Shown: positions 1 to 25,798, counted from the first letter of the stretch. The stretch is DNA of 64,000 bases from Candidatus Kerfeldbacteria bacterium (GCA_043799405.1 JAZDNT010000002.1:107320-171319); one strand, 5' to 3'. The notes: generated by a model from the letters alone, not told the origin. Numbers and translations: made by a program.

Positions 1-41
1 GCCTAGTCGTCGTGCGTCGGGCCATGACCATTCCTCGTCGC

Positions 42-767
42 CTAGAGGAGTTTCGAGAACACGGGTCTCTGTTCGTTCGCCGTCAGCGCCCGGAGCCCTT
101 TGGCCGTCAAGAGCGCGTCGGCTGCTTCCCGCACCGCTGCGTCCGCCGTGCTCCTGAACATCATGGCCGTGTCGAGCTTCCAGTAGGTCTCAGGGGCGAA
201 GAATCGCTCGTAGACCCAGCCGAGGATCGGCACTGCAAGGATCGCTTCTTCGGGATCGTCCCACCCTCCGCGGGACAGCACGGTCAGGAGCCAACTTGCC
301 AGGATGAAAGCCAGGAGAACCTCGATGACCAAGGACACGATCGGGAAATAGCTACTGTTCGTGATGCTCCATAGGAGGGACATCTGCCGCTGATGACCGA
401 GCAGCGCCCACACCATCCTCTCAAGGACCAACTCCAGCGCGTACCACAGCGCGAGGAATCCAACGAGGAACAGCGGCACCCAGCGCGCCGGCCGCTTGAC
501 GAGCCACCACGAGAAGAAGAAGCCGGTGCCGAAGGGCGCGGCGCACACGTCGAACGTGAACCGTCCGCGGGAGATGCGGAGGTATTCCCGCTTCGCGGAG
601 GCGACGCCGCCCTCACTCCAGTCGATGCGTGATGTCGCGTAGCCGGGGATCTTGCGGCGTTTGAGGCCGGCTTCCACCGAGTCGTAGAAGTCCCTTGTCG
701 AGGTCTGGAAGTCCTCGACCAGATTCTGCCAGCTGTCCAGGACGTCCTTCAGAGCGAGTCGCGGCAT
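42..767 (-). CDS. hypothetical multi-pass membrane protein
   Basis: ORF 42..827. The ATG at 767 is preceded by a GAGGGA Shine-Dalgarno (SD) sequence. Several hydrophobic helices (FFFSWWLV, VPLFLVGFLALWYALELV, IVSLVIEVLLAFILASWLL). No family recognised. Confidence 0.5.
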   Translation of the reverse strand: MPRLALKDVLDSWQNLVEDFQTSTRDFYDSVEAGLKRRKIPGYATSRIDWSEGGVASAKREYLRISRGRFTFDVCAAPFGTGFFFSWWLVKRPARWVPLFLVGFLALWYALELVLERMVWALLGHQRQMSLLWSITNSSYFPIVSLVIEVLLAFILASWLLTVLSRGGWDDPEEAILAVPILGWVYERFFAPETYWKLDTAMMFRSTADAAVREAADALLTAKGLRALTANEQRPVFSKLL

Positions 768-980
768 GATTCCCTCGTGCTGGCGGCCCCCTGCCCGAGC
801 AGCCACCGCCAAAGAGCAGCTCCCCATTGAAGCCGAGCCATTCCTTCCCTCCCTATCGCATCGTTGTCGATTAGAGGTCGTCAGCGAACGCTCAATGCAG
901 CATCGACTGGAAGGGCCCCAATCGTTCTCTTCTTACCCAGCGTCTTAAGCAATGTGCCGCCGCTTACGAGCGCCTCTGGG

Positions 981-3080
981 TTAGGAGAAACGGGCGACCC
1001 TCGCGGCAAGTAAGGCTGCCGTTGCCCGTTCTGCTTCTCGGATATCCGTCAGCGCCAGTTCGATCAACTCACAGTCACGAACAAAGGACATCTGTTCGTC
1101 CACCGTCATCTCCGGAATCTCGATACCGAGAAAATCCTCGATTGACAAACGATTTCGGCTCGTACTGGTAGTGCCCGTCGATAACCGCTCGGCCGTCGCC
1201 CAAGTGGCCGGTGATTTCAGAAAGTACTTAATGTACGGCCCATATGCGGGCGCTCCATCCTTCAGACGAAACAGAGGAAACTCATTGCTCACGTAACAAC
1301 CGTCTAGTTCCGCAGGTACCACGCCAAACGACCCCTTCCAAGCGAAAAGGCGATTATAGATTATGTCCTCGGGCTGCACCTTGAAGACGTACTTCGCCTT
1401 AATCTCAGCGCCCAGAAGCTCCTCACGCAGGAACGGCCCCTCCCCGTACCACTTCACACCCAGAAGCCGGTAGCGCTCTTTCCGTTGAACGGCGAAGCGT
1501 CGTTCCTCTCGGGCAATCCAGTCACCCAAAGGCACTGCCCTCTTGAATGTCTTTTGGCTGCCAAACGCCACGGCGCTGAGGTGCGATGACGCTGTCGTGA
1601 GCCTCCCCACGGCAGTGTTGAGCATCTCGTGGGTCTTGTCGGCAGTCTTCGATGTCACCGCCGGCGCGCGGCTAGCAAGATACTTCCCTATCCGCAAGTC
1701 GACTTTGCCCTCTTCAGCGTCGTCGACTTCGACCACAACCGATTGCGCCGACTTCCCGCGTCCGCCAAACGTTGAAAGGACAGCGGGGATGTCGTTTGCC
1801 TCAATCGGGACGCGTCGGTCGTCTAAGCTGTACCCATCCGCCTGCAGATCAAAGAACCACACCTTCCGCGTCGGCGCACCCTTCTGGAACACGAGAATGC
1901 TCGTCTTCGCACGGGCATACGGGAGAAACACACCGGCGGGGAGCGAGATCACCGCCTCAAGCGCGCACTCGCTCAACAGGGATGCTCTTAGCCGTTGGTT
2001 CGCGCGCTGATTTCCGGTAATTACACCATCAGGAACTATGATGCCGGCTCTTCCCTCATCGCTGAGATGGTCGACGATCCACTTGACGAACAAGAGTTCC
2101 GTGTCTCGGGTCGGGAGGTCGATGTCGGCTAGGACGCTCTCCTTCTGGAGACTGCCTGCGAAGGGTGGATTAGCCAGGATGACGTCGTAGAGTTGTCCCG
2201 GGTACTGCCCCCCGTGGGTGGTGGTCAGTGGGTTGTGGTGCTCGATCCGGGCCCGCTCGAGCTGGTGGAGGTAGAGGTTGAGGACGGCAATCTTCACCAT
2301 GTTGGCGTCGTTGTCGAAGCCGGTGAAAGCGTGCTGCTCGAGGAACTCCCACTGCTTCGGCTTAAGCAGGCTCCCATCAACGGTGCCGCGCTTGAGGTCG
2401 GCCGGCTTCGTGTGCTTACGCAAGATGTGGGTGTAGGCCGCGATCAGGAAGCCAGCCGTGCCACAGGCCGGGTCACAGATCCGCTGACCTGGCTGCGGGT
2501 CAACGAGAGTGACGATCAGGTTGATGATGTGCCGCGGGGTTCGGAACTGGCCATTCGTGCCGGACTGAGAGAGCTTGCTGAGCAGGTACTCGTACATGTC
2601 CCCCTTGAGATCGTGGCCTTCGTGGGGGGCAAGGTCCATCTCCGCGATCCCCTGGACGACGGCCCGAAGCGTGGGGCGGTCGTAGATCTTGAGCGTGGCG
2701 TTGCGGAACAGTTCCTGACCGGTCCGCGTCAGGCTTGGCAGCTCGTGGAGTCTTTCGATCGCTCCCCGGAGTGCATCAAAGAGCTCGTTGCCGGTGAGGG
2801 GAACGAAGCTGCCCCAGGCGTACTGCGCCCACGCACCCGAGAAAACACGCTTGTAGCCTTTCTCGATGACGGCCAACTGCTCATCTCGCTCTGAAAGGAG
2901 TCGCAGGAAGACGAGATACGACAGCTGCTCGATGGCGTCCATCGGGTTGTTGACGCCACCGGCGTAGAGGACGTCCATCAACTGGTCGACACTCTGCCGC
3001 AGCCCGGACGAGAAGAAGTTTGAGCCGTTGCTCTGGCTCAGCTTCGTCACGGAATCGCTCTGGGTCTTGGGGGCGCGCAT
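981..3080 (-). CDS. hsdM: Type I restriction-modification N6-adenine DNA methyltransferase fused to a single target-recognition (HsdS-like) domain
   Basis: 699 aa. HsdM-like N-terminus, SAM-binding DPACGTAGFL and catalytic NPPF (ILANPPFAGS). The C-terminal ~200 aa resemble one HsdS target-recognition domain (VSNEFPLFRL). AAGGA SD; start lies 7 nt after the hsdR stop. Confidence 0.85.
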   Translation of the reverse strand: MRAPKTQSDSVTKLSQSNGSNFFSSGLRQSVDQLMDVLYAGGVNNPMDAIEQLSYLVFLRLLSERDEQLAVIEKGYKRVFSGAWAQYAWGSFVPLTGNELFDALRGAIERLHELPSLTRTGQELFRNATLKIYDRPTLRAVVQGIAEMDLAPHEGHDLKGDMYEYLLSKLSQSGTNGQFRTPRHIINLIVTLVDPQPGQRICDPACGTAGFLIAAYTHILRKHTKPADLKRGTVDGSLLKPKQWEFLEQHAFTGFDNDANMVKIAVLNLYLHQLERARIEHHNPLTTTHGGQYPGQLYDVILANPPFAGSLQKESVLADIDLPTRDTELLFVKWIVDHLSDEGRAGIIVPDGVITGNQRANQRLRASLLSECALEAVISLPAGVFLPYARAKTSILVFQKGAPTRKVWFFDLQADGYSLDDRRVPIEANDIPAVLSTFGGRGKSAQSVVVEVDDAEEGKVDLRIGKYLASRAPAVTSKTADKTHEMLNTAVGRLTTASSHLSAVAFGSQKTFKRAVPLGDWIAREERRFAVQRKERYRLLGVKWYGEGPFLREELLGAEIKAKYVFKVQPEDIIYNRLFAWKGSFGVVPAELDGCYVSNEFPLFRLKDGAPAYGPYIKYFLKSPATWATAERLSTGTTSTSRNRLSIEDFLGIEIPEMTVDEQMSFVRDCELIELALTDIREAERATAALLAARVARFS

Positions 3081-3087: not shown

Positions 3088-5499
3088 TTAGGATGCTGCC
3101 TTTAGGGCTTCGCGTGATCGTTGCACGAGGGCAGACTGCCGCAGGGCTTCGAAGACCAACTCGCGGTCCTGGAGGGCCGCCAGCGCGGCTATTCCGCCAA
3201 GCGTGCGGAACTGGCTCCGCGCGAACAGACGACTGTACTGCCCACCAAGAAAGTCTTCCATCGCCTCTTGATCTTCGCTCACAAGCTCCGCCACGGCGTT
3301 GAGCCACTTCTGATCGCCATAGCGAAGGTTGAATCGCGCGGCGATCGAGTCCACAGTATCCGCGACGATTGCGTCCTTCGTCGGAAGCGGGCGTTTACCT
3401 AGAGCGCTGTAGACGAAGGCGGGCGTTGAGGCCGGCACGCCGTAGGACACCACCAGCTTGCCCGCGGCATAGAACATCTCCGGGTGGTGGAAGAAGCGCT
3501 CCTGGAGAATCGTCTCGATGGCATCATCGTCTTCGGCATCGACAGCATCCTTCAAGTCGGTGTTCGCTGCGGTGAACGCCTTGACGTCCCGTTCGAACGA
3601 GCCCCGGAAGGTCATCACGTCCACCTTCTCGCCATTCGGCCCGACGATACGGACTTCTTGGCTCACGATGCGGTCGGTGCCTTCCCACACCGGGATCTCG
3701 CGCTGTCGAGTGTCGTCGGGCCCGGGAGGCGTAATCCCTGCCTCGGCGCCCCCAGGAGCGCCTCGTGTACCTCCCTTGTCGTCCGCCTCCTCGGGTTGCC
3801 GCTTCGGTTGGGGAAGGGCGAGGGCCGCCGTGTAGTCGTACTTCTCCTCGAAGTACTCGGCGACTGCGCAGAAATCAAGGAGGAAGAACGTCTTCTTCTC
3901 GTACTCCGTGTTCTTGACGACGAACGTGAACCGGCGCGTTCCGCGTCCTTTGATCTGGATGTATTCCGTCGGGGAGAACACGGGGCGCATGAGGACAACG
4001 TTGAGCAGGTCGCGGCAGTTATAACCCGTCGAGAGCATGTCCACGGAGACTGCCACCCGCTCCTTGCGCTTACCGTCACGGAACTCCTTGGCCAGCGACG
4101 ACGCCTCAGGGATCCTCGAGGTGATCGTCAGCGCGATGCCTGGTTGGATCTCGTTCAGCAACTTCGTCAGAGTCGTGGCGTGTGTCTGGTTGACCGCGAA
4201 GACGAGGGACTTGCCGATCGCGCCCGTCGGGTCGCGCTGCGCCTCCTGGAGAAACGCCTCGCACATGATCCGGTTCCGCTGCGGCGTGAAGATCTTGCGC
4301 TCGAGGTCCTGGATCTTGAAGTTCTCTTCCTGCTCGTTCACGACCACGCTCCAGCCGGCATCTTGGAGAGCCTGGGTCGTGATGTCCGAGCGGCAGTCGA
4401 TGATCTTCGGCAAGCAAAGGAAGGGTCCCTCTGGGTCCTTCACGGCGTCGATTATGTCGTAGCGGAACGTAGGCTCGCCGGGCTCGCACCCGAAGTAGTG
4501 GTAGGTGTCCCGGAGCTCACGAGCTTCGAGCACTTTCGGCTCTTCCGCGGCGAGCTGTTCGAGGTTGACGTTCTTCAGGTACGCCTTGGGCGTGGCGGTC
4601 AGGCCGATACGAGTGGCTTGGAAGAACTGCACCGCTTCCCGGGCGTCGCCGTAGATCGACCGATGTGCTTCGTCGTTGATCACGAGGTCGAAGTAGAAGG
4701 GCGTGAACTCCTCGCGGTATCGCCTGTCGGTCATGAGCGACTGGATCGTCGCCACCACTACCGAGGACCCGAGCAGCTCACCCGTCCGCCGGGCCGTCTT
4801 GTAGATGACCGGCTTGTACTCGCCAAGGACGATGTTGAAGTCCTCCATGGTCTGCTTTGCAAGCTCGATACGGTCCACGATGAACAAGACCCGTTCGGCG
4901 TTGCGGGTCTTGAGAAAGCGCCGAATGAGTGCAGCGCACAGAAGGGTCTTGCCGGTCCCGGTCGCCATCTCCAACAGGAACTTTCGCCGACCCGTGTCGT
5001 CAAAGCCTTTGGCGATCGCGTCCATTGCACGGATCTGGTAGCCGCGGAGGGTCAGATCGTGGCGGAGGCTCCGGAGGTAGTCCGGGTGCACGATCTCGGT
5101 CTGAAGCGGTCGCGGAGGCCGGAGATTCTTCAGACGCACCCGCTCGAGGTCGTCGCGGCTCGGCAGCCGTTCGATGCGATAGGCGTCGCGCTGGTCAGCC
5201 CGCTCGTAGTTCCAGAACCAGTGCTGGCGGCCATTGGAGAGAATGACGAAGGGCGCCTTCAAGTTCTCCGCGTAGCCGCGGGCTTGTTCCTTCGCGTCGT
5301 AGGGGTCGAGGTCTTCGCGCTTCGCCTCAAGGACGCAAAGCACGCGTCCAAGGGTATCCTTGAGCAGGTAATCCGCCCGACCGTTCGCTGTGTGATGCTC
5401 AAAGTGGACCTGCTGCGGGTCCAGCAAATCCCAGCCACCCGCCTCGAGCGCTTTGTCGATCAGAATCCGAGAGAATGCTTCAGGTTGGTGCATCGGCAT
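3088..5499 (-). CDS. hsdR: Type I restriction enzyme R subunit-like helicase-nuclease
   Basis: N-terminal PD-(D/E)xK-like motif (ADYLLKD...VLEAKRED). SF2 helicase motifs MATGTGKT, DEAH (VINDEAHRS), GLTATP, QIKGRGTR. Start at MPMHQPEAF chosen by typical HsdR N-terminus plus GAGG SD; the ORF extends to 5568. Confidence 0.8.
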   Translation of the reverse strand: MPMHQPEAFSRILIDKALEAGGWDLLDPQQVHFEHHTANGRADYLLKDTLGRVLCVLEAKREDLDPYDAKEQARGYAENLKAPFVILSNGRQHWFWNYERADQRDAYRIERLPSRDDLERVRLKNLRPPRPLQTEIVHPDYLRSLRHDLTLRGYQIRAMDAIAKGFDDTGRRKFLLEMATGTGKTLLCAALIRRFLKTRNAERVLFIVDRIELAKQTMEDFNIVLGEYKPVIYKTARRTGELLGSSVVVATIQSLMTDRRYREEFTPFYFDLVINDEAHRSIYGDAREAVQFFQATRIGLTATPKAYLKNVNLEQLAAEEPKVLEARELRDTYHYFGCEPGEPTFRYDIIDAVKDPEGPFLCLPKIIDCRSDITTQALQDAGWSVVVNEQEENFKIQDLERKIFTPQRNRIMCEAFLQEAQRDPTGAIGKSLVFAVNQTHATTLTKLLNEIQPGIALTITSRIPEASSLAKEFRDGKRKERVAVSVDMLSTGYNCRDLLNVVLMRPVFSPTEYIQIKGRGTRRFTFVVKNTEYEKKTFFLLDFCAVAEYFEEKYDYTAALALPQPKRQPEEADDKGGTRGAPGGAEAGITPPGPDDTRQREIPVWEGTDRIVSQEVRIVGPNGEKVDVMTFRGSFERDVKAFTAANTDLKDAVDAEDDDAIETILQERFFHHPEMFYAAGKLVVSYGVPASTPAFVYSALGKRPLPTKDAIVADTVDSIAARFNLRYGDQKWLNAVAELVSEDQEAMEDFLGGQYSRLFARSQFRTLGGIAALAALQDRELVFEALRQSALVQRSREALKAAS

Positions 5500-5673
5500 T
5501 GAGTAAGCCTCATGGTCCCGCAGGCTGCGACACAGGGGTGAGAACGGCACTAGTCGCTTGATAGCCAATGCGTTACGGCGTAGTGAGCATACTGAGACTG
5601 AATCTGTTCGTCAATCTCTTCGGCGTACAAGAAAGGACGGGGCCGTCGAAACGCCAACAGCCCCGTAACTACG

Positions 5674-6135
5674 TCAGTTGAGGGACAACTCCCTCCGAAA
5701 GAGCGATGCGAGTCTGAGACTCCCTTCCATCTGCAACCGCGGGCAGGCGTCCTTCTCCACCTCGGTGAAGGCGTTGAAGAGCGACCAGGCCGTGCGCGCC
5801 GCGAACTCCTCGTGCCGTGGCTCCTCCCACGCCTCGATCACCTTGGGAAGTCGCGACGCTGGGAGGACGTTCGCTTTGACCGCCTCAATCATCAGGTGGT
5901 GGGCCTGTGCTGACGGCAGCTCGCGCACCTTCATGGCCGCGATCTCTCCGTCGATCCGCGAGCGCATGGACGAGACCTGGGAGAGCATCCGGAAGATCAG
6001 GTCCGGCAGATCACGGAACACATGGACGGTGTGCTTGCGGTGCATGGTCACCTCACCCGAGAAGGCGAGGTTGTCGCACACGAAGGTTCTTGAGCCCGAG
6101 CACATCGAGACGGACAGGGAGCGATCGTAGGAGGA
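5674..6135 (-). pseudogene. DUF932-family protein, C-terminal fragment, severed from its N-terminus by the RIT insertion
   Basis: The frame reads ...SSYDRSLSVSMCSGSRTFVCDNLAFSGE..., the conserved DUF932 core, with no native start. The matching N-terminal half is at 12617..12889 on the same strand. Confidence 0.75.
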
Positions 6136-6315
6136 GCGCTTATGCCGTGCACGGCATAAGTCGTCCTATGCCGAGTCGATCCTTATGCAGAGTTGACGGG
6201 CTTCTGCCGTGGGAGCCGTGCACCCGCTGACGCCGTTGCTCCGCATAACCGTACCCTCCTCTCCCGCGCCCGCCGTCATACCGACGACAGGCAGCCCGGG
6301 GGAGGAGGTTTCTTC

Positions 6316-7563
6316 ATGCGACTGCAGGACGGTGACCGTCTCGTGCTCGAGTACGGCGGTCGAGCAGGGTGCGCCCAAGCGCATCTCGACGACTTCGCAA
6401 GCGAGCTCTGGGTGTCGGGCTTCACACCGCTCACCATCATTCAGCACACCGTGTCGGTCTGTCACTTCGGACGTTGGCTGCTCAGCCGTGGGCTCGAACT
6501 CGGCGGCGTCACTCAGGACGTATTGGACCAGTTCGCGGCCCACTTCCATCGCTGCCGATGCTCAGTCCACCATCGGCGTTCCTTCCCGCGCACTGTGGGG
6601 CATGTCAGACGGTTCGTGACCTACTTGCGCGGGAAAGGCATCGTGCCCCACCCACTCGTCGCGCCACCGCCTGCGCCACCCGAGGCGCTTCGAGGCTTTC
6701 GGGAGTGGATGCAGCAGCATCGTGGCGCGACCGCCGGCACGACGGTGCGGTTCGAGAAGCTGCTGCTGGGGATCCTGCCCCAGCTCGGCCCCGATCCCAG
6801 GATGTACGAGCCCGCTCGCCTGCGCAGCGTGATCCTGGACGAGGGTCGTCGTCGTGGCCGGCACCATGCCCGCTTCCTCGTGACCGCGTTGCGCGCCTGG
6901 CTGCGCTTCCTCACCACTGAAGGACGATGCCCAGTGCACCTCGACCAGGCGTTGCCAACGATCGTGAAGTGGCATCTGGCGAACGTGCCCCAGCATCTCG
7001 AACTCGACGAGATCGAGCGGGTGATTGCCTCTTGCGACGCGAAGACGCCCGTGGGCGTGCGCGATCGGGCGATCCTGCTGCTGCTCGCCCGCCTCGGCCT
7101 GCGTGCTTCCGACATCACCGGGATGCGACCGGGTGACATCGACTGGCAGCAGGGTTCCTTGCGCGTCCGCGGCAAAGGCCGTCGCGAGGTCTGCCTGCCG
7201 CTGCCACAGGACGCGGGCGAGGCGCTGCTCGAGTACCTGCGCCACGCGCGACCGCTGGCCGATATCGACCGGGTGTTTCTGTGCGTGCAGGCACCCTATC
7301 GGCCCTTCGCGACGTCGATGGTCGTTGCGGACGTCGTCCGCTTCGCGCTTCGCCGGGCGGGCATCACGCGTGTGCGCTCGCAAGGTGCGCACCTCCTTCG
7401 ACACTCCGCGGCCACCTCGATGCTCAGGGCAGGGGCGTCGCTCGAAGCGATCGCGGCGGTCCTGAGGCACCGTTCACCCGAGACCACCGTCCAGTACGCC
7501 AAGGTGGACCAGGCACTCCTGCTCGCGATTGCCCAGCCCTGGCCGGAGGGAGCACCATGCTGA
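6316..7563 (+). CDS. tyrosine recombinase, RIT gene 1
   Basis: GGAGGAGG SD upstream of ATG 6316. Catalytic-type motifs GLRASD, HLLRHSAAT, ...TTVQYA. N-terminal SAM-like domain. Confidence 0.85.
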   Translation: MRLQDGDRLVLEYGGRAGCAQAHLDDFASELWVSGFTPLTIIQHTVSVCHFGRWLLSRGLELGGVTQDVLDQFAAHFHRCRCSVHHRRSFPRTVGHVRRFVTYLRGKGIVPHPLVAPPPAPPEALRGFREWMQQHRGATAGTTVRFEKLLLGILPQLGPDPRMYEPARLRSVILDEGRRRGRHHARFLVTALRAWLRFLTTEGRCPVHLDQALPTIVKWHLANVPQHLELDEIERVIASCDAKTPVGVRDRAILLLLARLGLRASDITGMRPGDIDWQQGSLRVRGKGRREVCLPLPQDAGEALLEYLRHARPLADIDRVFLCVQAPYRPFATSMVVADVVRFALRRAGITRVRSQGAHLLRHSAATSMLRAGASLEAIAAVLRHRSPETTVQYAKVDQALLLAIAQPWPEGAPC

Positions 7564-9475: not shown

Positions 9476-9492
9476 CAGAAGGGGCGCTTCAC

Positions 9493-9921: not shown

Positions 9922-9937
9922 GTCCAGCCTCTGAGTT

Positions 9938-12568: not shown

Positions 12569-12616
12569 AGCAAAGCGCGGTGGCCACTGACCGCGCATAA
12601 CCCATAGCCCAGCATA

Positions 12617-16583: not shown

Positions 16584-16638
16584 GCCAACGCTCAGGCCTC
16601 CTCACCGCCGGAGTCGACTCCAACGCGGATCGATCCTC

Positions 16639-18138: not shown

Positions 18139-18218
18139 TGTTAGGCGCAGATTGGTAAACGCACGCAGCCTGCTGCATCGCTGTGGGACACGTACTCACG
18201 CACGAACGGGGCAGGGCC

Positions 18219-18974
18219 ATGCTTCCAAAGAGACCCACTGACATTCGCTCGGCAGTCGACCAGCTCTTCGACAAGGAACCACTCCCCCCTGACCTTGCCC
18301 GGCATCTTCTGAGTGCGTGGAGCTCCAATCTCAACGCCACGGAGCGCAGCGTGAGTCGTGGATTTCTTGCGATCGTCGCTACCTTTGCGGGGTTCATAAC
18401 CCTCGACACGAAGATCCTGACAAAGATCGCGTTTCAAGGTGCCGAAATTGGACGCACTGGAATCATCCTATGCTTTGCCACTGGCGCAATGTCCTATTTT
18501 TATTACAGATGCATTACACAGCTAGGATTTGCCCATGACCTGCGCACGGCGATTGCAGTGCTCTATCGGAGGCTCCATGAGCCTGTTTATATCGGCGGCC
18601 TTGATCTCCTGACCCACGTACCGAGCATAAGGAATCTAGAGGCATACGATTCATTCTATGCGCCCAAAAGCCTCCGCGTCTTTCACGAGCGAACAACGGA
18701 TGTGGTCACACTTGCCCTACTGCTTGGCCCTCTGGTCGTGGTCGTATACTGCACGATTCGGCTGTGGAGTTATCCCGATGTTAGACCTGTCCTCTGGACT
18801 GTCACTGTCTTGGCGGCGCTCGTGTTTGTCTTGCGCGCGTGGCTCTATGGTCTCAGGCAGAAGGGTGATGATGTCTTCGCCGATCGCCGCTTGGAGTCGC
18901 TGTCCGACTCCCCCAAGGGAGCGGGCGCCAACGCTGCGGAACACGATGACGAGGCAGTCGCGCCAAAGTCCTGA
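18219..18974 (+). CDS. hypothetical 4-TM membrane protein downstream of the SPARTA pair
   Basis: Same strand, about 80 nt after the pAgo stop. Hydrophobic helices (FLAIVATFAGFITL, GIILCFATGAMSYFYY, VVTLALLLGPLVVVVYCTI, VLWTVTVLAALVFVL). Locally more AT-rich than its neighbours. No family recognised. Confidence 0.55.
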   Translation: MLPKRPTDIRSAVDQLFDKEPLPPDLARHLLSAWSSNLNATERSVSRGFLAIVATFAGFITLDTKILTKIAFQGAEIGRTGIILCFATGAMSYFYYRCITQLGFAHDLRTAIAVLYRRLHEPVYIGGLDLLTHVPSIRNLEAYDSFYAPKSLRVFHERTTDVVTLALLLGPLVVVVYCTIRLWSYPDVRPVLWTVTVLAALVFVLRAWLYGLRQKGDDVFADRRLESLSDSPKGAGANAAEHDDEAVAPKS

Positions 18975-18994
18975 TGCACACGCAAGCCCTCGGG

Positions 18995-19230
18995 CCAGCT
19001 GCGATAGCTAGTGCGAGAGCATCAAACATGTGCAGCCAGTACTTGTCCCGCGGTCGCAGCCCCAGCGCCGCCCGTTTCGGGATCAACTCCTTCAGCTCAT
19101 CGAGACGCCTGCCTGACCAATGCCTCCGCGACATGGATCTTCGTCGCCTTCGGGTTCCCGACCACGGGGGGATCGCACTCTCCGGAGCGCGTCAAGGGGT
19201 TCTTTGCTTTGGTCTTGTCCGACGTCAGCT
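18995..19230 (-). pseudogene. 5'-truncated, frameshifted remnant of a RuvC-like gene
   Basis: Two minus-strand frames give ...GNPKATKIHVAEALVRQ... and ...IPKRAALGLRPRDKYWLHMFDALALAIAA, matching the C-terminal ~80 aa of CDS 20548..21066. A 26 nt core is identical (19025-19050 = 20594-20619). Confidence 0.7.
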
Positions 19231-19979
19231 TATACCGGCCATAGCCGATCAGCTCGTGCGCCGGGTTGCCACGGGTTGACGGCCCAGACTTCTCTGAAGT
19301 GCACCGTCTCGCGACGCAGCGCCGCGCGCATTTCTCCCAGCTCGGTGTCTCCGTACGGAGTAAGGTCGAAGAAGATCGCCAGGACGACCTCTGACGGCAC
19401 TGGTCCGAGGTGCAACTGCTTCTTGCGGAGAGCCTCGAGTCCGCGCGCGGCCACGACGTCGTGGTCGAAGTGAAATGGTGGTCCCTGAATCGAGATGTTT
19501 GACCGATCAGCGTCGATGCCTTCGAGTTCCATCTCGGCGATGCCCATGTCGTCCGCATGCGGCGCGAGAATCCTCTTCTCGCCGGGGGAGAGCGGCGAAA
19601 CCACACTCCTCAAGATCGTCTCGCGGAGTACCGCGCCCATTGCCTTGCGATCACGTCGGCTATCTGGGAGCCGGTGAACCCAGATCGTCAACTTGAAGCC
19701 CTTCAGAGCCCCGGACATGAGCGGTTCCTGAATTTCCGCGTAAGCCCACTGCCCCGCTATCGCCCGCTTCGCCCGCTCCTCCTTCTCATTGCTCGCAGCG
19801 CAGGTGTGCTGCACGAGGAGCGGCGGGGCGCCTCGGGCGGAGCTGGGCCAACGGTAGTCCCAGTCGGTGTGCGGAGCCTCGATGGGCTGGCCGGCGAACG
19901 CGGTGTGGTGAATGCGGTTGTACGCCGAGAGAAAGAGATCAAGGAATTTCTGTCGTGCCAAACCTTTCAGTTCAGCCAT
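19230..19979 (-). CDS. hypothetical protein (249 aa)
   Basis: Start MAELKG with GGAGGGAGAGG SD. Balanced, globular-looking composition. No family recognised. Confidence 0.55.
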   Translation of the reverse strand: MAELKGLARQKFLDLFLSAYNRIHHTAFAGQPIEAPHTDWDYRWPSSARGAPPLLVQHTCAASNEKEERAKRAIAGQWAYAEIQEPLMSGALKGFKLTIWVHRLPDSRRDRKAMGAVLRETILRSVVSPLSPGEKRILAPHADDMGIAEMELEGIDADRSNISIQGPPFHFDHDVVAARGLEALRKKQLHLGPVPSEVVLAIFFDLTPYGDTELGEMRAALRRETVHFREVWAVNPWQPGARADRLWPV

Positions 19980-20202
19980 TCGCCTCTCCCTCCATCCGCT
20001 ACAGACTAACAAGTCTCTAGCGCCACGGCCATCCCCAAGGCTCATGCCTGCGTCGCCATTTATCGCATTCGTCGTCCTAATCCTTTTGATTGTGGTCGGC
20101 TTGTGTTTGGACCGCTGGAAGCGCCTAGGCTCACGGCGCCCCATTGCCCTTCACTCAGGACCGTGCTTGAATAGAATGGTCCTATTACTAACGCATCACC
20201 TT

Positions 20203-20526
20203 ATGACTGAACGTAATCTAGGGATGGAGCACGGGGACAATGATCCCGAGAGAATCAAGGCGGCACTTACTGCAGAGCTTGCCGATCTCGCATCACGCAT
20301 GGCATCGGTCGACAGAAACGGCGTGACGTCGTTTCGTTTTGGCGACAAGCCACGCACAATGGATGAGGTCTATATTGAACTGGAAGTTGACGACGCCACA
20401 GGTGAAATCGAACTGATCGAGCCTGGGACCATCAAGGTGCACTCAAAAACGCATGATCCCGTCGAAGCCGCCCAGTGGGTTCGCGAACAGATTGCCCAAG
20501 AGGACGAGAAGCGGCGTGAGGCCTGA
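20203..20526 (+). CDS. hypothetical small acidic protein (107 aa)
   Basis: Divergent from 19230..19979 across an AT-richer spacer. MTERNLGMEHGDNDPERIKAAL... Start uncertain (ATG 20203 or 20224). Confidence 0.4.
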   Translation: MTERNLGMEHGDNDPERIKAALTAELADLASRMASVDRNGVTSFRFGDKPRTMDEVYIELEVDDATGEIELIEPGTIKVHSKTHDPVEAAQWVREQIAQEDEKRREA

Positions 20527-20547: not shown

Positions 20548-21066
20548 TCAAGTCGCATTGACGCTTGCGGCGACCGCGATCGCCAGAGCGTCGAACATGT
20601 GCAGCCAGTACTTGTCCCGTGGTCGTAGCCCGAGCGCCGCACGCTTCGGTCGATTCGGGATGAGTGGCGTGAGTTGGTCAAACCCCTGCGCTACGAGCAC
20701 CTCGGCCACCTCGATCTTCGTCGTCCTTGGGTTCCCCGTGACGCGCTCGCGAATCGTCGCCGGCGACAGCTCGACGACCACAACCCCCAACTCTTCTGTC
20801 CTGCTCCGCAGTTCCTGCTCGATCACCGACATGAGCGCGGCCCGTTTGGTCGGGAGCATGAGGGGTTCCTCGATCGCCACGATGTCGGGCCCGTGCTTCT
20901 CGATTTCCGCGAGGACGATTCGCTTCGCCTGCCCGATCACGTCGTAGGGTCGGGTACCATTCCGAAGCGTCCGCACGCCGTAGGCGAGCAGCTCACGTCC
21001 GCGGAGGACAGCGAGACCCATCTCCTTCGTTCCGGGATCGATGCCGAGGATGGTCTTGTGTTGCAT
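20548..21066 (-). CDS. RuvC-like Holliday-junction resolvase fold nuclease, copy A
   Basis: ILGIDPGTKEMGLAVL (Asp 1), IVAIEEP (Glu), HMFDALAIAVAA (Asp), in the order expected for RuvC-family catalytic acidic residues. 172 aa. Confidence 0.7.
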   Translation of the reverse strand: MQHKTILGIDPGTKEMGLAVLRGRELLAYGVRTLRNGTRPYDVIGQAKRIVLAEIEKHGPDIVAIEEPLMLPTKRAALMSVIEQELRSRTEELGVVVVELSPATIRERVTGNPRTTKIEVAEVLVAQGFDQLTPLIPNRPKRAALGLRPRDKYWLHMFDALAIAVAASVNAT

Positions 21067-21186: not shown

Positions 21187-21702
21187 TCACCGGCCGCGGG
21201 AGGGCGGTTGCGTCGCTGTCTGGTGGTGCATGGCGAGCGCGACGGCGTCGAACATGTTCTGCCAGAAGCGCTCCTTCCACTTCCGGTCCTGCGTGAGGTA
21301 GACGCGGAGCTGCGGGAAACGCACTGCGACAGCCACGGCTGCTTCAGCCTTCGTGGCTCGTCCGTTGCCGAGCACGCCCTGGCGGACCTGCTGCGGCGAG
21401 TAGGTCGCAAACGGGATGCCCTGCAACCGGGCGAGTCGACGCACCGTGAGGGTCAGGCGGTGGACATCGTCGAGCCAGGGCAGGGGGTGGTGGTACGTCT
21501 TCTCCATCACGATCGCGTGCGGGTGGTGCAGACGGAGCCAGCCCTTCACGTGCCGGCGGACTTCTTTGAGGCGCGCGCTGCGAGGCAAACGTCGAAGCGT
21601 CAGGGCTCCGGCGGCAGCGAGCCGGCGGCCGGAGAGCACGGCCATGCCGAGGTCGCGGAGACCGGGATCGATGGCGAGGATGGGTTCAGTTCGATGGTTC
21701 AT
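21187..21702 (-). CDS. RuvC-like nuclease, copy B (paralog of copy A)
   Basis: ILAIDPGLRDLGMAVL, AIVMEKT, NMFDAVALAMHH. 171 aa. Its start overlaps the upstream wHTH gene by 17 nt. Confidence 0.7.
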   Translation of the reverse strand: MNHRTEPILAIDPGLRDLGMAVLSGRRLAAAGALTLRRLPRSARLKEVRRHVKGWLRLHHPHAIVMEKTYHHPLPWLDDVHRLTLTVRRLARLQGIPFATYSPQQVRQGVLGNGRATKAEAAVAVAVRFPQLRVYLTQDRKWKERFWQNMFDAVALAMHHQTATQPPSRGR

Positions 21703-22222
21703 GGGCGTGTTGCTTTAGGAGATAAAGGAAGAGCGCGGTTCGGGACCGTCGGATTCGTGTCTCGGGCACGGCCAGCGTGCCGGCAAGGGCGCGTTTCACG
21801 ACCGAGTCAGGGTAGAGGCTGAGCGCCGCCTGGAATGCTTCCTCGTTCCCGGGCTCGCCGAGTGCCCGCTGGAGCTTCGCGACCGTGAAGAACCGCGTGG
21901 GCACTGGCGGTGGTTCGGCCTGCGCCTTCGGGGAATCAACGCGCTTCATCGTTACCCGGACCTTGCCGTTGAGCCGCACGGCGTCGAGGTAGCCAGCCTT
22001 CCGCAGGTGTCCGAGCCAAGAGCGGATCGTCCCTTCAGGCAGCCCCATGTCCCGCCCGATCGCCGCGGGCTCCGCCTCGAATGTCTCAGCGCCGGCCGGC
22101 AGCCGGGCCAGGAGGTCGAGGTAGAGCCAGAGTCCCGCGCGCATGCGTCGCAGGTGGTAGGCCCGCGGATGCTCGAGGATGCGGCGATCGAGGGCGAGCG
22201 TGATGGGTCGAGGGAAAGACAT
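21686..22222 (-). CDS. winged-helix DNA-binding protein, copy 1
   Basis: N-terminal LWLYLDLLARL...IGRDMGLPEGTIRSWLGHLRKAGYL (wHTH-like). The C-terminal ...RRSRTALFLYLLKQ motif is shared with the neighbouring gene. Confidence 0.55.
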   Translation of the reverse strand: MSFPRPITLALDRRILEHPRAYHLRRMRAGLWLYLDLLARLPAGAETFEAEPAAIGRDMGLPEGTIRSWLGHLRKAGYLDAVRLNGKVRVTMKRVDSPKAQAEPPPVPTRFFTVAKLQRALGEPGNEEAFQAALSLYPDSVVKRALAGTLAVPETRIRRSRTALFLYLLKQHAHEPSN

Positions 22223-22238
22223 GGAGTCTGGAGGATTA

Positions 22239-22838
22239 CTAGCTGAGCTTTCGAAGCAGGGAGCGGAAGAGCGCGGCGCGTGAGACGCGGATCGAGGTCG
22301 TCGCCTGGACGCGCTTCAAGGCGCGATGGACGAGCGAGGGATTGCGTCCGGAGAGGAGCGTTCGGAACTCGTCGCGGTCGGCGTCAGGCCCGAGGACTGC
22401 AAGCACTTCGTCGAGCAGCGCCTCTCCTTCCCCCTGCCCCCCATCCTCTTGCTGCTTAGCTGCTGCAGCAGCGCTGCTGACGGGTACTTCTCTATGCACC
22501 TCGCTGCTGGAGGCCGCGGAATCAGGGGAGGAAGGGTGCTCGACATGGTTGCTGTCAGACCATGCTTTGAGCTTGATGACAAGGTACGGCGTCGGCGTGT
22601 GGACCTCGATGAGGTCTGCGTTGCTCAGCCGCTCCAGCCACCCCGCGAGCTGTTCTTCTTCGAGGCCAAGATCCAGCGCGAGCCGATCCGCTGGCCGGCA
22701 GACGACACCGCGGTAGTTCGCACGTGCGGCGAGCATGACGTAAAGCCAGAGCGCATCGCCGACCAGAGCACGACCACCGGGGAGCTGGAGCGGCGCCTCG
22801 ATGATCCGCCGTGCGTGTTGTGGCAGGCATCCGCTCAT
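22239..22838 (-). CDS. winged-helix DNA-binding protein, copy 2 (paralog)
   Basis: LWLYVMLAARANY...LALDLGLEEEQLAGWLERLSNADLI and C-terminal ...RVSRAALFRSLLRKL. Same architecture as 21686..22222, with a low-complexity linker. Confidence 0.55.
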   Translation of the reverse strand: MSGCLPQHARRIIEAPLQLPGGRALVGDALWLYVMLAARANYRGVVCRPADRLALDLGLEEEQLAGWLERLSNADLIEVHTPTPYLVIKLKAWSDSNHVEHPSSPDSAASSSEVHREVPVSSAAAAAKQQEDGGQGEGEALLDEVLAVLGPDADRDEFRTLLSGRNPSLVHRALKRVQATTSIRVSRAALFRSLLRKLS

Positions 22839-23119
22839 GCGCTTGCGGCGTTGGCGGAGCCTCCGTCCTTCGGAAAGGTGGAGTAGAAGTCCATGTACAG
22901 CGACTCCGCGAGCGTGCCGAGGATCTTGGCCATCTTGAGCAGCCGGGGGACGCTGGGCAGCGTAAGTCCTCGTTCCCAGGAGGAGATCGCGTTGCGCTTG
23001 CGGCCGAGCATCTCGGCCAGCCTCCGCTGGGAAAGGCCAGCTTTGATCCGGTACTCCCGGATCTTGTTCGGGAATCTGGGCGCGTGGCGGGACGCGCGCG
23101 GGGTGTGCTGGACAGGCAT
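22835..23119 (-). CDS. XRE-family HTH transcriptional regulator (cI/Cro-like)
   Basis: IREYRIKAGLSQRRLAEMLGRKRNAISSWERGLTLPS. Its stop overlaps the next start (ATGA). Start uncertain (ATG 23119; the ORF extends to 23194). Confidence 0.75.
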   Translation of the reverse strand: MPVQHTPRASRHAPRFPNKIREYRIKAGLSQRRLAEMLGRKRNAISSWERGLTLPSVPRLLKMAKILGTLAESLYMDFYSTFPKDGGSANAASA

Positions 23120-23191
23120 GCCGTCAGGATAGCGACCCGAAGGAAAACCGAACAGGGGGGTAAAAGCGTGGAAATGCGGACATCCTGTGGA

Positions 23192-23219
23192 CAACCCGAT
23201 ATTGACAACTTACCCATAG
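23192..23219 (+). promoter_or_regulatory. near-consensus sigma70-type promoter in the divergent regulator region
   Basis: TTGACA (23192-23197), 16 nt spacer, TATACT (23214-23219), about 40 nt upstream of ATG 23259. The segment is AT-rich within the GC-rich island. Confidence 0.5.
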
Positions 23220-23258
23220 GTAATATACTGAAAGCAGAGATCACTAATCACTACACCT

Positions 23259-23477
23259 ATGGCAACACCACTCCCCATCGTCACCTACGAAGGCAAGCGC
23301 TGGTTCTTCGACGCCCGGCTGCAACAACTCCGCACCGTAGACCGCGACCGCCCACTCGAGTTCCGCGACCTCAACGATTTCGAGATGGAATACTTCAAGG
23401 GCCTCGTCGAAAAGGGCGAGGTTGACTACCTGGCCGTTGACACCCGGCGGCCCGTGAATACAGCGACTAAGTCTTGA
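23259..23477 (+). CDS. hypothetical small protein (72 aa)
   Basis: First gene transcribed divergently from the XRE regulator. No family recognised. Confidence 0.45.
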   Translation: MATPLPIVTYEGKRWFFDARLQQLRTVDRDRPLEFRDLNDFEMEYFKGLVEKGEVDYLAVDTRRPVNTATKS

Positions 23478-23734
23478 GCATTAGCAACACTTCCATGGCA
23501 CTTCCAACACACATCACCCACGAGCCCGCCGACCCCGACGCTTGGGTCTGTCTCTGCGGGAACACCCCGACCTTAGAGGGCTTCCTCCCCTGCGACGTAC
23601 AGGGACGCCCCGTCTCCCCAACCCCCCAGGACTGGACGACGAACGCCTACGTTTGCAATCGGTGCGGACGCATTATCGAGGATGGCAGCCTTGAGATCGT
23701 CGGGCAGGCCGAGAAGGACGCTGCAGCGCCATGA
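23474..23734 (+). CDS. hypothetical Cys-pair (zinc-ribbon-like) protein
   Basis: CLCG...CNRCG spacing. Start uncertain (TTG 23474 or ATG 23495). Confidence 0.4.
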   Translation: MSISNTSMALPTHITHEPADPDAWVCLCGNTPTLEGFLPCDVQGRPVSPTPQDWTTNAYVCNRCGRIIEDGSLEIVGQAEKDAAAP

Positions 23735-23926: not shown

Positions 23927-24148
23927 ATGCTCGGACCAGGTGCGGCCAACGACAGGAGCTTCGCCTTCGGCCTCACGCCCGACGAGGTCGATCGCTTCCG
24001 CGACATCATGCGCCGGGAGTGCGGCGTCGAACTCACCCCCGAACAGGCGTGGGCCCGCGCTATTGAGTTGCTCTCGCTTTTCCGGATGCTACTCGGTCCG
24101 CTGCCGGAGGATCGACCTGCGCCCCAGTTCGAACATCGTCGCTCTTGA
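23927..24148 (+). CDS. hypothetical small helical protein upstream of the serine recombinase
   Basis: ORF 23906..24148, first ATG at 23927. No family recognised. Its position would suit an accessory or directionality factor, but this is speculative. Confidence 0.35.
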   Translation: MLGPGAANDRSFAFGLTPDEVDRFRDIMRRECGVELTPEQAWARAIELLSLFRMLLGPLPEDRPAPQFEHRRS

Positions 24149-24193
24149 CGGTTTCGGTGATTTCGGGAATTCCTATCAAGACAGCCTCGACCT

Positions 24194-25798
24194 ATGCCCT
24201 CCCACGTCATCTACGCTCGCAAATCCACCGAGTCCGACGACCGCCAGGTCCTCTCGATAGACTCCCAAATCCAAGAGCTGAAGACGCTCGCGCTGCGTCG
24301 TGGCATCACGGTCGCGGATGTGCTGACCGAGGCGCGTTCAGCCAAGGCACCAGGGCGCCCGGTCTTCGGCGAACTCATGCGGCGCGTACGTCGCGGCCAA
24401 ATCGGCGGCATCCTCTGCTGGAAGATGGACCGGCTTGCACGAAACCACCTCGATCATGGCGTAGTCCTTCAGGCACTCGCCGATCGGCAGCTGCGGGAGG
24501 TCATCACCTCGGACCGAACCTACACGGGCGACGGCAACGACCGCTTCCTCGGCAACTTCGAGCTCGGCATGGCCACGAAGTTCATTGATGACCTTCGCGC
24601 GAACGTGAAGCGCGGGAACCGCGCACGCTTCCAGCGCGGCTGGCCGAACTACCGTCCGCCCGCCGGCTACCTCGAGGACCACGCGACCAAGACGATCGTG
24701 AAGGACTCCGTGCGCTTCGACCTCATCCGCCGGGCATGGGACCTGCTGCTTACCGGCACGGTACGCCCGAGCCGGATCTTGGTCGCCCTAAACGACGAGT
24801 GGGGCTACCGCTCCCGGCAGACCAAACAGCGGGGTGGCAGCCCGATGTCGCTGTCCGGCCTTTACGGGATCTTCGAGAACCCGTTCTACGAGGGCCTGAT
24901 CCGTCTCTCCAGCGGCGAGACCTACAAGGGCGCGCACGAGCCGATGGTCGCGCCCGAGGAGTTCGAACGGGCCCAGGAGTTGCTCGGTCGTCCAAGTCGA
25001 GCCCGGCCGGTGCACCACGACTTCACTTTCTCGGGGCTTCTTCACTGCGCCTCGTGCGGCCGGGCGTTAGTCGCCGAGGCGCACATCAAGCCGAGCGGCA
25101 AGCGCTACGTCTACTACCGCTGCCACCGCAGGCGTATCGGCGAGACCTGCTCCGAGCCGGCGCTGCCTGAGGAGATCCTCCGCGAGCAGCTGGTCCAGGA
25201 CCTCAAGCGGATGCGCCTGACACCCGAAGCGGCCGGCTGGATCCGCGACAACCTCAAACACTCGCTCGAGGGCGAGGTCGGCCAACTTCGCACCGTCCGG
25301 GCATCACTGGAGAACGCCGTCCGGCAGGCAGGTGCCGAAGAAGAGACGCTCCTCACCCTGCGGCTCCGAGGCTCGATCGACGACGGGATCTACGAGCGTC
25401 GCAAAACGGCGCTTCAAGACCGCAGGGCGCAACTGCAGCTACGACTCGACCGGCCCGATCAATCGCCGGAGGAGCTGCTAGAGCGCGTGGAACAGGCTCT
25501 CGCCTTCTCGCTGCACGCCCCGCAAGTCTTCCGTGATGGCACGCGGGTTCAACAACGGCAGATCGTGGAGGTGGTCGGGTCGAACTATCGGGTCACCCGG
25601 AGAAAAGCGCTCTACACAGCGAACAAGCCGTTCTCCCTGTTCACGGAAGCAACGGCTTCTTCGCTCTGGTGGACCGTGGCGGATTCGAACCGCCGACCTC
25701 TGCAATGCGAATGCAGCGCTCTACCAGCTGAGCTAACGGCCCTTATTCTGGTTCCCCCACCAGGAATCCCCGCCTGCCTTAAGCTCTGCCCCCACTAG
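24194..25798 (+). CDS. large serine recombinase (integrase)
   Basis: N-terminal resolvase domain (VIYARKSTESDDRQVLSIDSQ, catalytic Ser context). Recombinase domain. Zinc ribbon (CASCGRALV...YYRCHRRRIGETC). Coiled-coil region. The ORF has no stop until 25798, so its last ~45 codons are tRNA-Ala, the spacer and part of tRNA-Arg. Confidence 0.9.
   Translation: MPSHVIYARKSTESDDRQVLSIDSQIQELKTLALRRGITVADVLTEARSAKAPGRPVFGELMRRVRRGQIGGILCWKMDRLARNHLDHGVVLQALADRQLREVITSDRTYTGDGNDRFLGNFELGMATKFIDDLRANVKRGNRARFQRGWPNYRPPAGYLEDHATKTIVKDSVRFDLIRRAWDLLLTGTVRPSRILVALNDEWGYRSRQTKQRGGSPMSLSGLYGIFENPFYEGLIRLSSGETYKGAHEPMVAPEEFERAQELLGRPSRARPVHHDFTFSGLLHCASCGRALVAEAHIKPSGKRYVYYRCHRRRIGETCSEPALPEEILREQLVQDLKRMRLTPEAAGWIRDNLKHSLEGEVGQLRTVRASLENAVRQAGAEEETLLTLRLRGSIDDGIYERRKTALQDRRAQLQLRLDRPDQSPEELLERVEQALAFSLHAPQVFRDGTRVQQRQIVEVVGSNYRVTRRKALYTANKPFSLFTEATASSLWWTVADSNRRPLQCECSALPAELTALILVPPPGIPACLKLCPH
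25667..25742 (-). tRNA. tRNA-Ala (anticodon CGC), CCA encoded
   Basis: Manual cloverleaf: GGGCCGT/ACGGTCC acceptor stem with G3:U70, D-stem GCTC/GAGC, anticodon stem CTGCA/TGCAG, loop TTCGCAT, T-stem GGCGG/CCGCC. 76 nt. Confidence 0.9.

Follow-up and report, generated by a model that had tools for sequence, protein, structure and literature searches.

A probable serine-integrase island with SPARTA and type I restriction–modification genes at the 3′ end of a tRNA-Ala gene in Candidatus Kerfeldbacteria

Results

We analysed 64,000 nt of DNA from Candidatus Kerfeldbacteria bacterium (GCA_043799405.1 JAZDNT010000002.1:107320-171319); this whole stretch is called the window, and all coordinates are positions in it. 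On its GC-rich left side a gene for a large serine recombinase (LSR) runs into the 3′ end of a tRNA-Ala(CGC) gene that lies on the opposite strand, and the evidence below makes it very probable that positions 1-25,666 belong to an integrative element of horizontal origin, of which they form the integrase-proximal part, and that this LSR inserted the element at the 3′ end of tRNA-Ala(CGC) in a Kerfeldbacteria chromosome. The original prediction for this DNA had proposed an integrated, defence-carrying element of at least 25.7 kb beside a tRNA in a genome of the Candidate Phyla Radiation (CPR), and that proposal is supported by empty sites in relatives, by the point at which homology with the integrase of locus L007 breaks, and by independent copies that are joined to tRNA genes.

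The LSR gene (24194-25798, + strand, 534 codons) encodes Resolvase (PF00239, E=1e-18, aa 5-149), Recombinase (PF07508, aa 178-264) and Zn_ribbon_recom (PF13408, aa 279-337) domains, and the catalytic motif Y7-A-R-K-S11 is present with its nucleophilic serine. The protein matches the C-terminal domain of the A118 integrase in PDB, where matches to solved structures reach only E~1e-5. Upstream of it are a small open reading frame (ORF; 23474-23734, +) and, divergent from both, an XRE-type HTH regulator (22835-23194, −; HTH_3, E=1e-14), and this arrangement of regulator, small ORF and integrase recurs in L007, L009, L036-43 and L096-100. The reading frame of the LSR is native to ~25,672, and its codons from 25,673 to 25,798 are a read-through of the antisense tRNA-Ala (25667-25742, −; intact; ARAGORN, Rfam 69.5 bits), the spacer behind it and the start of tRNA-Arg(CCT) (25787-25858, −; ARAGORN and Rfam).

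The closest integrase relatives, L007 and L008 from ENA metagenomes, are 86% identical to the window LSR in amino acids and 83% in nucleotides, and lie on contigs of 64% GC with no tRNA nearby. Both are colinear with the window up to 25,672-25,683, and the final 71 nt before the sequence TGGTGG are 100% identical. Beyond the break, L007 encodes WW-AIAEDVRTWLLNTRGVFLPDL.. and the window encodes WW-TVADSNRRPLQ.. from the antisense tRNA. The L007 tail after the break (AIAEDVRTWLLN..LPDL..) is ~38 aa long, and its motif (E/D)D(V/L)RTW(L/F)..(L/I)P.L is kept in 13/13 relatives with an intact gene (48-86% identity). Because the motif is conserved in all 13, a tail of the L007 type belongs to the integrase protein, and the window copy has lost it after LWW. 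This loss explains why all integrase homologues in the databases cover only ~93-94% of the window ORF.

TGGTGG is the complement of the 3′-terminal CCACCA of the tRNA, and 6-8 nt are shared at the join. The stretch TCTGGTGG (25665-25672) is the only sequence common to the element-type sequence, which is attP-like in L007, and to the host-type sequence, a tRNA-Ala fragment in L005. Thus the crossover would have to lie within TCTGGTGG, which we take as the inferred core. A direct repeat of the tRNA-Ala 3′ end had been predicted to mark the far end of the element; with ≤5 mismatches allowed, no second tRNA-Ala 3′ piece was found in the window, and since attP and attB share only TCTGGTGG, such a repeat is not what this integrase leaves. 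A tblastn search of the window for an orphan integrase tail gave chance-level matches only. Of the two junctions, the window holds the integrase-proximal one, and no orphan tail or tRNA fragment was found in 1-25,666. A 17/24 dyad (AAGCCGTT..AACGGCTT) is located ~25 nt upstream of TGGTGG (~25625-25660; L007 ~11425-11470) within the 71 identical nt; possible roles are those of an accessory site and of an RNA hairpin, and the dyad is not used as evidence here.

The corresponding site without an island is present in L005 and L006, two Kerfeldbacteria contigs of GCA_040960375.1 that are ~73% identical to the window DNA. Their order is tRNA-Ala(GGC), tRNA-Ala(CGC), tRNA-Arg(CCT), a palindrome, a small membrane ORF, a giant fn3/LysM gene, bactofilin, DAGK and IF-2, continuing to RNase Y; to the left of the tRNA cluster are PP2C-like, HTH, EamA, TGT and SpoU genes and no island. 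The island-less interval is a spacer of 120-225 bp before tRNA-Ala(GGC). The island is thus present here and precisely absent from the site in relatives, which are only ~73% identical and are compared with a window whose left flank is unseen. Therefore, from the synteny with L005 and L006, both tRNAs and the AT-rich spacer behind them (25859-27082, 36.5% GC) are native host DNA, and foreign DNA starts exactly at the 3′ end of tRNA-Ala(CGC). The 3′ half of the window tRNA-Ala(CGC) is identical in 38/38 positions to L005 9215-9252 (window 25,665-25,702), and the window tRNA-Arg(CCT) is 94.5% identical to that of L005. Because tRNA-Ala(GGC) is absent from the window and the island fills the interval that precedes this tRNA in the relatives, the left end of the island lies beyond window position 1.

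Two other ways of drawing the right boundary were considered. The first, in which the tRNAs are parts of the island, was rejected because L005 and L006 have both of them in synteny. The second took the AT-rich stretch of 25.9-27.1 kb for another piece of foreign DNA, and was rejected because the palindrome TTCCACGTGGAA and the small membrane ORF (26072-26353, −) of this stretch are kept in both relatives.

The GC content is 64.0% (0.640) in 1-25,666, 36.5% in 25,859-27,082 and 55.3% in 27,083-64,000, and the step coincides with the 3′ end of tRNA-Ala(CGC). Among 1-kb windows, the 25 on the left give 0.640 ± 0.035 GC and the 36 on the right 0.551 ± 0.027 (Mann–Whitney p=5e-10). The GC-normalised tetranucleotide correlation (r) of the island with the host is 0.64. 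It is 0.90 for one half of the host part against the other and 0.94 for host against L005, and for the island against its element relatives r is 0.90-0.94. Windowed GC and tetranucleotide profiles, two of the checks proposed by the original prediction, thus both split the left side from the right. The left 25.7 kb had also been called far more GC-rich than the rest: its GC is indeed higher, but ‘far’ overstates a moderate gap of ~9 points (64 versus 55%), and Kerfeldbacteria relatives themselves have 58-60% GC. Because the composition fits the high-GC relatives and not the host, the island appears to have been acquired recently, and from outside the host lineage. The closest relatives of its backbone genes are found in high-GC contigs, two of them in metagenome-assembled genomes (MAGs) labelled Gammaproteobacteria, and on this ground the foreign origin of the island DNA is certain. 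Composition, absence from the syntenic site in L005 and L006, and a backbone common to relatives together delimit 1-25,666 as a partial integrated element.

The same anatomy is found at other loci with related integrases. L100, a Logan assembly with an integrase 81% identical to that of the window, ends 24 nt into the 3′ end of a different tRNA and is joined at TGGTGG. The JGI contig L082 holds a small degenerate copy with both ends, of which the right end reads ..SSLWW|tRNA-Ile(TAT) and the left end, ~4.2 kb away, consists of TGGTGG and the orphan tail TVAEDVRTWLLNTRDVFLPDL.., 76% identical to the tail of L007. L011, a 348-kb contig of a MAG labelled Gammaproteobacteria, has the backbone and two orphan tails at the end distal to the expected integrase, ~0.7 kb from a tRNA-Val. 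Moreover, a JGI scan gave 60 loci with integrase relatives, 42 of which were scanned for tRNAs, and in 22 of the scanned loci the integrase is directly followed by an opposite-strand RNA gene, which is a tRNA (Asn, Gly, Arg, Lys, Asp, Ser, Trp, Ala or Ile) or, in four cases, a tmRNA. The integrase ORF enters the 3′ end of the RNA gene by 10-135 nt in 20 of these 22, and translation of the antisense T-arm keeps to one frame that gives (D/E)-S-N, which is ADSN in the window. The distant JGI relatives are 28-40% identical and lie on contigs of 27-50% GC; host proteins flanking the L073 copy are named ‘Patescibacteria group bacterium’ by NCBI. L009 was considered as a second CPR example and set aside, there being no RNA gene at its integrase.

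Two side observations concern these loci. To the left of the mini-element, L082 1-6000 contains more divergent homologues of the PD-(D/E)XK nuclease and 230-aa ORF of the backbone together with fragments of tRNA-Val and tRNA-Ile, which suggests that related elements have accumulated in tandem at a cluster of tRNAs. Copies of the orphan tail also occur 0.6-2.4 kb past integrases with an intact tail (L040 12241-12348, L041 6831-6944, L043 12215-12283, L054 13931-14002 and L061 819-1091), and these may be the trace of earlier recombination.

In the island, profile searches found every item that the original prediction had listed, namely type I restriction–modification (R-M), SPARTA, a RIT unit, RadC, DUF932, a Cas4-like gene, an XRE regulator and the serine integrase. 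Its count of three defence or DNA-targeting systems stands in part: type I R-M and SPARTA are bona fide defence, and the RIT trio is not defence but a nested mobile insertion.

The R-M module occupies the left end of the window. HsdM (981-3080, −; N6_Mtase, E=4e-53; HsdM_N; PADLOC MTase_I, E=8e-124; NCBI MFH0828779.1) is fused to half an HsdS, as PADLOC Specificity_I matches aa 494-682, a C-terminal half specificity (target recognition) domain. Next to it lies the gene for the restriction subunit HsdR (3088-5568, −; ResIII, HSDR_N and Helicase_C; PADLOC REase_I, E=2e-61). No separate HsdS gene was found in the R-M module of the window, so the specificity function rests on the half-domain of HsdM, and with it the HsdR, HsdM and HsdS functions are encoded together. 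A 261-aa ORF without Pfam, PADLOC or NCBIfam match (42-827, −) accompanies the module; its relatives are at most 46% identical and occur in MAGs of Gammaproteobacteria and Acidobacteriota, and its homologue in L010 adjoins HsdR/HsdM and the element backbone.

SPARTA is encoded by two cargo genes, in which the TIR-APAZ subunit (15183-16583, +; PADLOC Aga_TIR-PNTD1-PNTD2, E=4e-122 over its full length; TIR_2; PDB TIR-APAZ, E=1e-65) lies directly upstream, on the same strand, of a ~500-aa short pAgo (16633-18138, +; PADLOC pAgo_I, E=3e-189, profile positions 4-493 of 493; ORF open from 16519). Residues 2-501 of the short pAgo align with residues 5-507 of PDB 8qlo_B (E=5e-151), and both proteins match their counterparts in solved SPARTA complexes end to end. 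The remaining variable slot (18183-20526) holds ORFs of 263, 304 and 204 aa without Pfam, PADLOC or NCBIfam match, and an NCBIfam search of ten island ORFs that lack a family gave no match.

Between the two defence modules, a DUF932 gene has been split. Its C-terminal part (5674-6105, −; DUF932 profile positions 85-205 of 227) aligns with the 3′ part of the intact gene in L001, and its N-terminal part (12563-12889, −; 89 codons) is 62-80% identical in amino acids to the starts (~90 residues) of the intact genes in L001, L010 and L040. Aligned with L001, window 14979-12623 is colinear, and the alignment then passes, at a single L001 coordinate, to 6139-5676. Because an intact DUF932 gene of the L001 type is thus interrupted by 6.48 kb (6140-12622), the RIT unit is a nested mobile element. 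It has three tandem, co-oriented tyrosine-recombinase genes (6193-9475, +; Phage_integrase, PF00589; E=1e-27, 3e-17 and 6e-32), as a RIT unit should, and three more ORFs, which encode 178, 614 and 213 aa. That a 2.6-kb cargo module was added to the RIT is suggested by an 81-nt direct repeat that contains a hairpin (9922-10002 and 12491-12571). At the ends of the insertion there are a palindrome on one side (6132-6167) and short TTATGC-containing sequences; convincing terminal inverted repeats that bound it were not found in the 6.48-kb unit.

The backbone of the element was defined by comparison with L001-3, L007, L010, L011, L036-43, L054 and L096-99, and consists of the LSR, the small ORF, the XRE regulator, two ORFs without family, two RuvC-like genes, a variable slot, a 230-aa ORF, the PD-(D/E)XK nuclease, RadC and DUF932. 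In the window, the two ORFs without family (178 and 199 aa; 21686-22838, −) are 59-82% and 31-49% identical in amino acids to those in relatives, and the two RuvC-like genes (20548-21066 and 21187-21702, −; RuvC, E=5e-7 and 8e-12) are 49-79% identical. The 230-aa ORF (14338-15030, −; no family) stands beside the nuclease gene in L001, L010, L038, L040, L054 and L096 as well (49-75%). The PD-(D/E)XK (Cas4/RecB-like) nuclease (13590-14360, −; PDDEXK_1, E=2e-33) is 93% identical in L001, and 34 members of its 90%-identity cluster come from other metagenomes. RadC (12920-13387, −; JAB; RadC, E=3e-43) is 56-86% identical in element relatives.

The type I R-M module with the 261-aa ORF joins the backbone in some copies of the element, and the contents of the variable slot differ: the window has SPARTA and three ORFs without family there, L096 has patatin and a 631-aa protein, and L001 has radical-SAM, methyltransferase and NACHT-like genes. 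Genes on the 3′ side of intact integrases encode a Qat system in L007; in L096 they encode an SMC-like ATPase, DUF4411 and an HTH-M78 peptidase. Defence-like genes of this kind would be expected at the left end of the island, which is unseen. The element showed no conjugation or virion genes, and scans of IMG/VR in which the integrase and the PD-(D/E)XK gene were the queries yielded no relatives, so the element is, as far as these scans can tell, not recognisably viral. L010 and L011, which belong to MAGs labelled Gammaproteobacteria, share the backbone (DUF932 75-84%, RadC 60-75% and PD-(D/E)XK 64-67% aa identity), and the presence of the backbone in these non-CPR MAGs points to a spread of the element family across phyla.

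The right side of the window carries IF-2, RbfA, NrnA-like DHH, RNase Y, YmdB, Mur ligase, PilT-type ATPase, polyprenyl synthetase and BipA genes. RNase Y is 100% identical to NCBI MFH0828817.1 of ‘Candidatus Kerfeldbacteria bacterium’ (302,101-bp contig), and the named proteins among its best 120 matches are all from Kerfeldbacteria, Patescibacteria or other CPR (Nomurabacteria, Parcubacteria); IF-2 and the giant surface proteins also match Kerfeldbacteria/Patescibacteria. Six window proteins, from either side of the junction, are labelled Candidatus Kerfeldbacteria by NCBI, and the HsdM, RadC and PD-(D/E)XK proteins of the island are recorded there on the same contig as RNase Y. The CPR/Patescibacteria host that had been guessed with low confidence is therefore right, and the host is Kerfeldbacteria, on the strength of the RNase Y identity, the named matches and the NCBI labels.

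Several further features were noted in the host part. The perfect palindrome TTCCACGTGGAA is located just downstream of tRNA-Arg(CCT) in three Kerfeldbacteria loci (window 25989-26000, L005 ~9537 and L006 ~7458), and, lying upstream of the small membrane ORF and the fn3/LysM gene, is likely to be a regulator binding site. The long fn3/LysM ORF begins in sequence of 29-45% GC (26513-27082), and the start used by NCBI is 190 codons later, which gives 871 aa (P0144). In L005 and L006, nothing equivalent to the 1396-aa GH43/SdrD/fn3/LysM surface protein of the window (29706-33896) lies between the fn3/LysM gene and bactofilin; this protein thus appears to be a lineage-specific insertion or loss in a variable surface-protein locus. 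Two other host tRNAs, Lys(CTT) at 49259-49334 and Arg(TCG) at 56178-56253, adjoin neither an integrase nor an island, and the tRNA-Lys is kept in L004. At L005 9039-9400 and L006 6945-7170, an intact tRNA-Ala(CGC) is framed by 11-nt inverted repeats. On its two sides are remains of a second tRNA-Ala(CGC), which is of the type found intact in the window: the 3′ half, and a piece with D-arm and anticodon. The picture is that of one tRNA gene placed in the anticodon loop of another. Further tRNA-Ala fragments are found near these genes.

Discussion

The reading of 1-25,666 as part of an element that the LSR placed at tRNA-Ala(CGC) has to be weighed against several observations. The join is deduced from comparative sequence, and the left junction with the expected orphan tail lies outside the window. 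Dyad symmetry around TGGTGG is at chance level, and no tRNA or Rfam RNA is found beside the integrase of L009, a Kerfeldbacteria locus with 58% integrase identity. Several relatives with an intact tail lie within long contigs (247 kb, 69 kb), which a simple view of attP as the episomal state does not explain. Finally, the backbone relatives in high-GC contigs and in MAGs labelled Gammaproteobacteria leave a chimera conceivable, provided that a second organism in the sample had this element at an identical tRNA-Ala(CGC).

Insertion by the LSR could be accepted and the island still be an old, immobilised remnant, now fixed and decaying. The DUF932 gene disrupted by the RIT insertion and the integrase without its conserved tail would fit such a state. 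However, the composition has not ameliorated towards that of the host (r=0.64), all backbone ORFs except DUF932 are open, and the element is absent from the two nearest relatives, although a DNA identity of ~73% constrains timing poorly. We therefore regard a decaying remnant as possible, with the odds clearly against it.

The original prediction had named a chimeric join at the tRNA as the alternative to integration. In that case the left 25.7 kb would come from a high-GC organism, such as the Gammaproteobacteria-like lineage with related elements, that has the element at its own tRNA-Ala(CGC), and the assembler would have switched organisms inside the shared tRNA. The left part is compositionally foreign, its backbone relatives occur in Gammaproteobacteria-labelled MAGs, tRNAs are conserved repeats, the left flank is unseen and the join is deduced from sequence comparison, all of which such an error would accommodate. 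It does not sit easily with the tRNA itself, since every part of the window tRNA-Ala resembles Kerfeldbacteria versions: the 3′ 38 nt are identical to the L005 fragment, the first ~27 nt are, by eye, identical to tRNA-Ala(GGC) of L005, and the spacer to tRNA-Arg is partly alignable with L006. A repeat of 76 nt is shorter than ordinary reads and than the k=141 of comparable assemblies, and would normally be resolved or break the contig. Moreover, only 6-8 nt are common at the join, far fewer than the k-mer of any assembly, and relatives in the attP state have no tRNA. A misassembly driven by a repeat is therefore unlikely, as a far longer one would be required for a de Bruijn misjoin. A chimera would also require an identical tRNA in a second organism with the same element, for which there is no evidence, a switch inside 76 nt and probably a second misjoin at the other end, and the geometry of the junction is that of independent integrated copies. 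With the empty sites, the homology break with L007 and L008, which have no tRNA nearby, and these independent copies taken together, assembly error is very unlikely.

Another possibility is that the DNA is contiguous but came in otherwise, by homologous recombination or through an event at the left end (transposition, or the action of a tyrosine integrase), and that integrase and tRNA became neighbours secondarily. It is the least probable explanation and can be given very little weight. In its favour, the left end is unseen, the island holds three tyrosine recombinases and some intact-tail relatives lie within long contigs. Against it, the homology break with L007 at the tRNA-terminal CCACCA removes a conserved tail, the same geometry is seen in L082, L100 and 20 distant relatives, and the tyrosine recombinases belong to the insertion nested in DUF932.

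For insertion by the LSR, we propose the following mechanism. The gene of the enzyme would carry attP within its 3′ end, and the enzyme would recombine this site with attB, the CCACCA end of tRNA-Ala(CGC), through a 2-bp crossover within TCTGGTGG. The tRNA-Ala would stay intact, and integration would remove the conserved C-terminal tail of ~38 aa from the integrase, which would gain a run-on tail from the antisense tRNA instead. The displaced tail would be expected as an orphan fragment at the unseen left end, as in L082 and L011, and should resemble TGGTGG-GCCATCGCGGAGGACGTTCGAACTTGG.. (encoding ..AEDVRTWL..LPDL..). Excision would restore the full-length integrase gene. The pair of XRE regulator and small ORF would regulate the integrase, and SPARTA and the R-M module would protect both host and element. 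It is a testable idea that the full-length and tail-swapped forms of the integrase differ in the direction of recombination.

Genes for tRNA and tmRNA are textbook targets of tyrosine integrases. The window enzyme resembles known LSRs (phiC31, Bxb1, A118, TP901-1, SPbeta SprA/YokA) in its set of Resolvase, Recombinase and Zn-ribbon domains and in its YxRxS motif, and the element shares with theirs a very short common core, the lack of long direct repeats, and an integrase at the element edge beside an XRE-type regulator. However, among 50,697 phage and 72,556 plasmid records no LSR is more than 31% identical to it. Its target is the 3′ end of a tRNA or tmRNA, whereas known LSRs use protein-coding or intergenic sites, and unlike in known LSRs its attP would lie inside the integrase ORF, so that a conserved C-terminal tail is swapped.

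In the Islander report (PMC4383910), integration at tRNA and tmRNA genes is attributed to tyrosine integrases. Islands of the Islander/TIGER type are like the present one in their insertion at a tRNA 3′ end, a tRNA that stays functional, an adjacent integrase, accessory or defence cargo and tandem stacking (L082, L011). In contrast, a serine recombinase is found here, no tRNA segment is restored and no tRNA fragment of tens of bases marks the far end; only TGGTGG is shared, and the far-end marker would be an orphan integrase tail. The integrases of SSV1-type archaeal viruses are tyrosine recombinases with attP inside int, where integration at a tRNA splits the gene in two large parts and excision would restore it, whereas the bacterial serine recombinase described here would lose only its last ~38 residues. 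The filamentous phage phiRSM (Askora et al. 2011) reportedly uses a small serine recombinase with attB at the 3′ end of tRNA-Ser; the window enzyme is not of this small, resolvase-like kind but a ~530-aa LSR with recombinase and zinc-ribbon domains.

For the cargo, the two-gene order of TIR-APAZ and then short pAgo and the full-length matches are those of SPARTA (8fex, 8qlo, 8ifk); the system is predicted here from its genes, and differs in being cargo of an integrative element in a CPR genome. The nested insertion has the three adjacent, co-oriented tyrosine recombinases of RIT elements, which insert as one unit, here into DUF932, and differs in its length of 6.48 kb and its three extra ORFs.

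Islands at tRNA genes, LSR-driven integration, SPARTA, type I R-M and RIT units are well known. Our search of the literature, of incomplete coverage, found no description of LSRs that target tRNA 3′ ends or of this arrangement in Patescibacteria. Three points look new: what appears to be a clade of serine integrases acting systematically at tRNA and tmRNA 3′ ends, a putative attP embedded in the integrase ORF with a conserved tail exchanged on integration, and the presence in a CPR chromosome of a defence-laden family member whose close relatives are found in non-CPR MAGs. Members of the high-GC branch are also found in MAGs labelled Gammaproteobacteria, and the integrases appear to be common in small contigs of low GC, of which one at least belongs to a Patescibacteria genome. 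More tentatively, and as a proposal that we hold to be rather doubtful in its full extent, these may all belong to a large undescribed clade of serine integrases with attB at tRNA/tmRNA 3′ ends, attP in their own ORF and a (D/E)SN tail swap, in which the two isoforms, full-length in the episome and tail-swapped in the chromosome, act as a switch of direction or activity and the high-GC branch transfers defence genes between CPR cells and bacteria of other groups, perhaps the hosts of the former.

CPR/Patescibacteria have tiny genomes and are thought to be poor in defence systems and in well-delimited mobile elements. The window provides a large, apparently recently acquired island with SPARTA and type I R-M in such a genome, at a site that can be defined precisely and in a family that can be traced across metagenomes. 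The finding also offers a practical rule for separating true tRNA-adjacent islands from tRNA-mediated chimeras without reads. If confirmed, the finding would define a class of short-site, tRNA-directed serine integrases, which are potential tools since tRNA ends exist in every genome; the orphan integrase tail would become a simple sequence signature for delimiting such islands in MAGs, and the exchange of the tail would provide a testable idea on how the direction of recombination is controlled.

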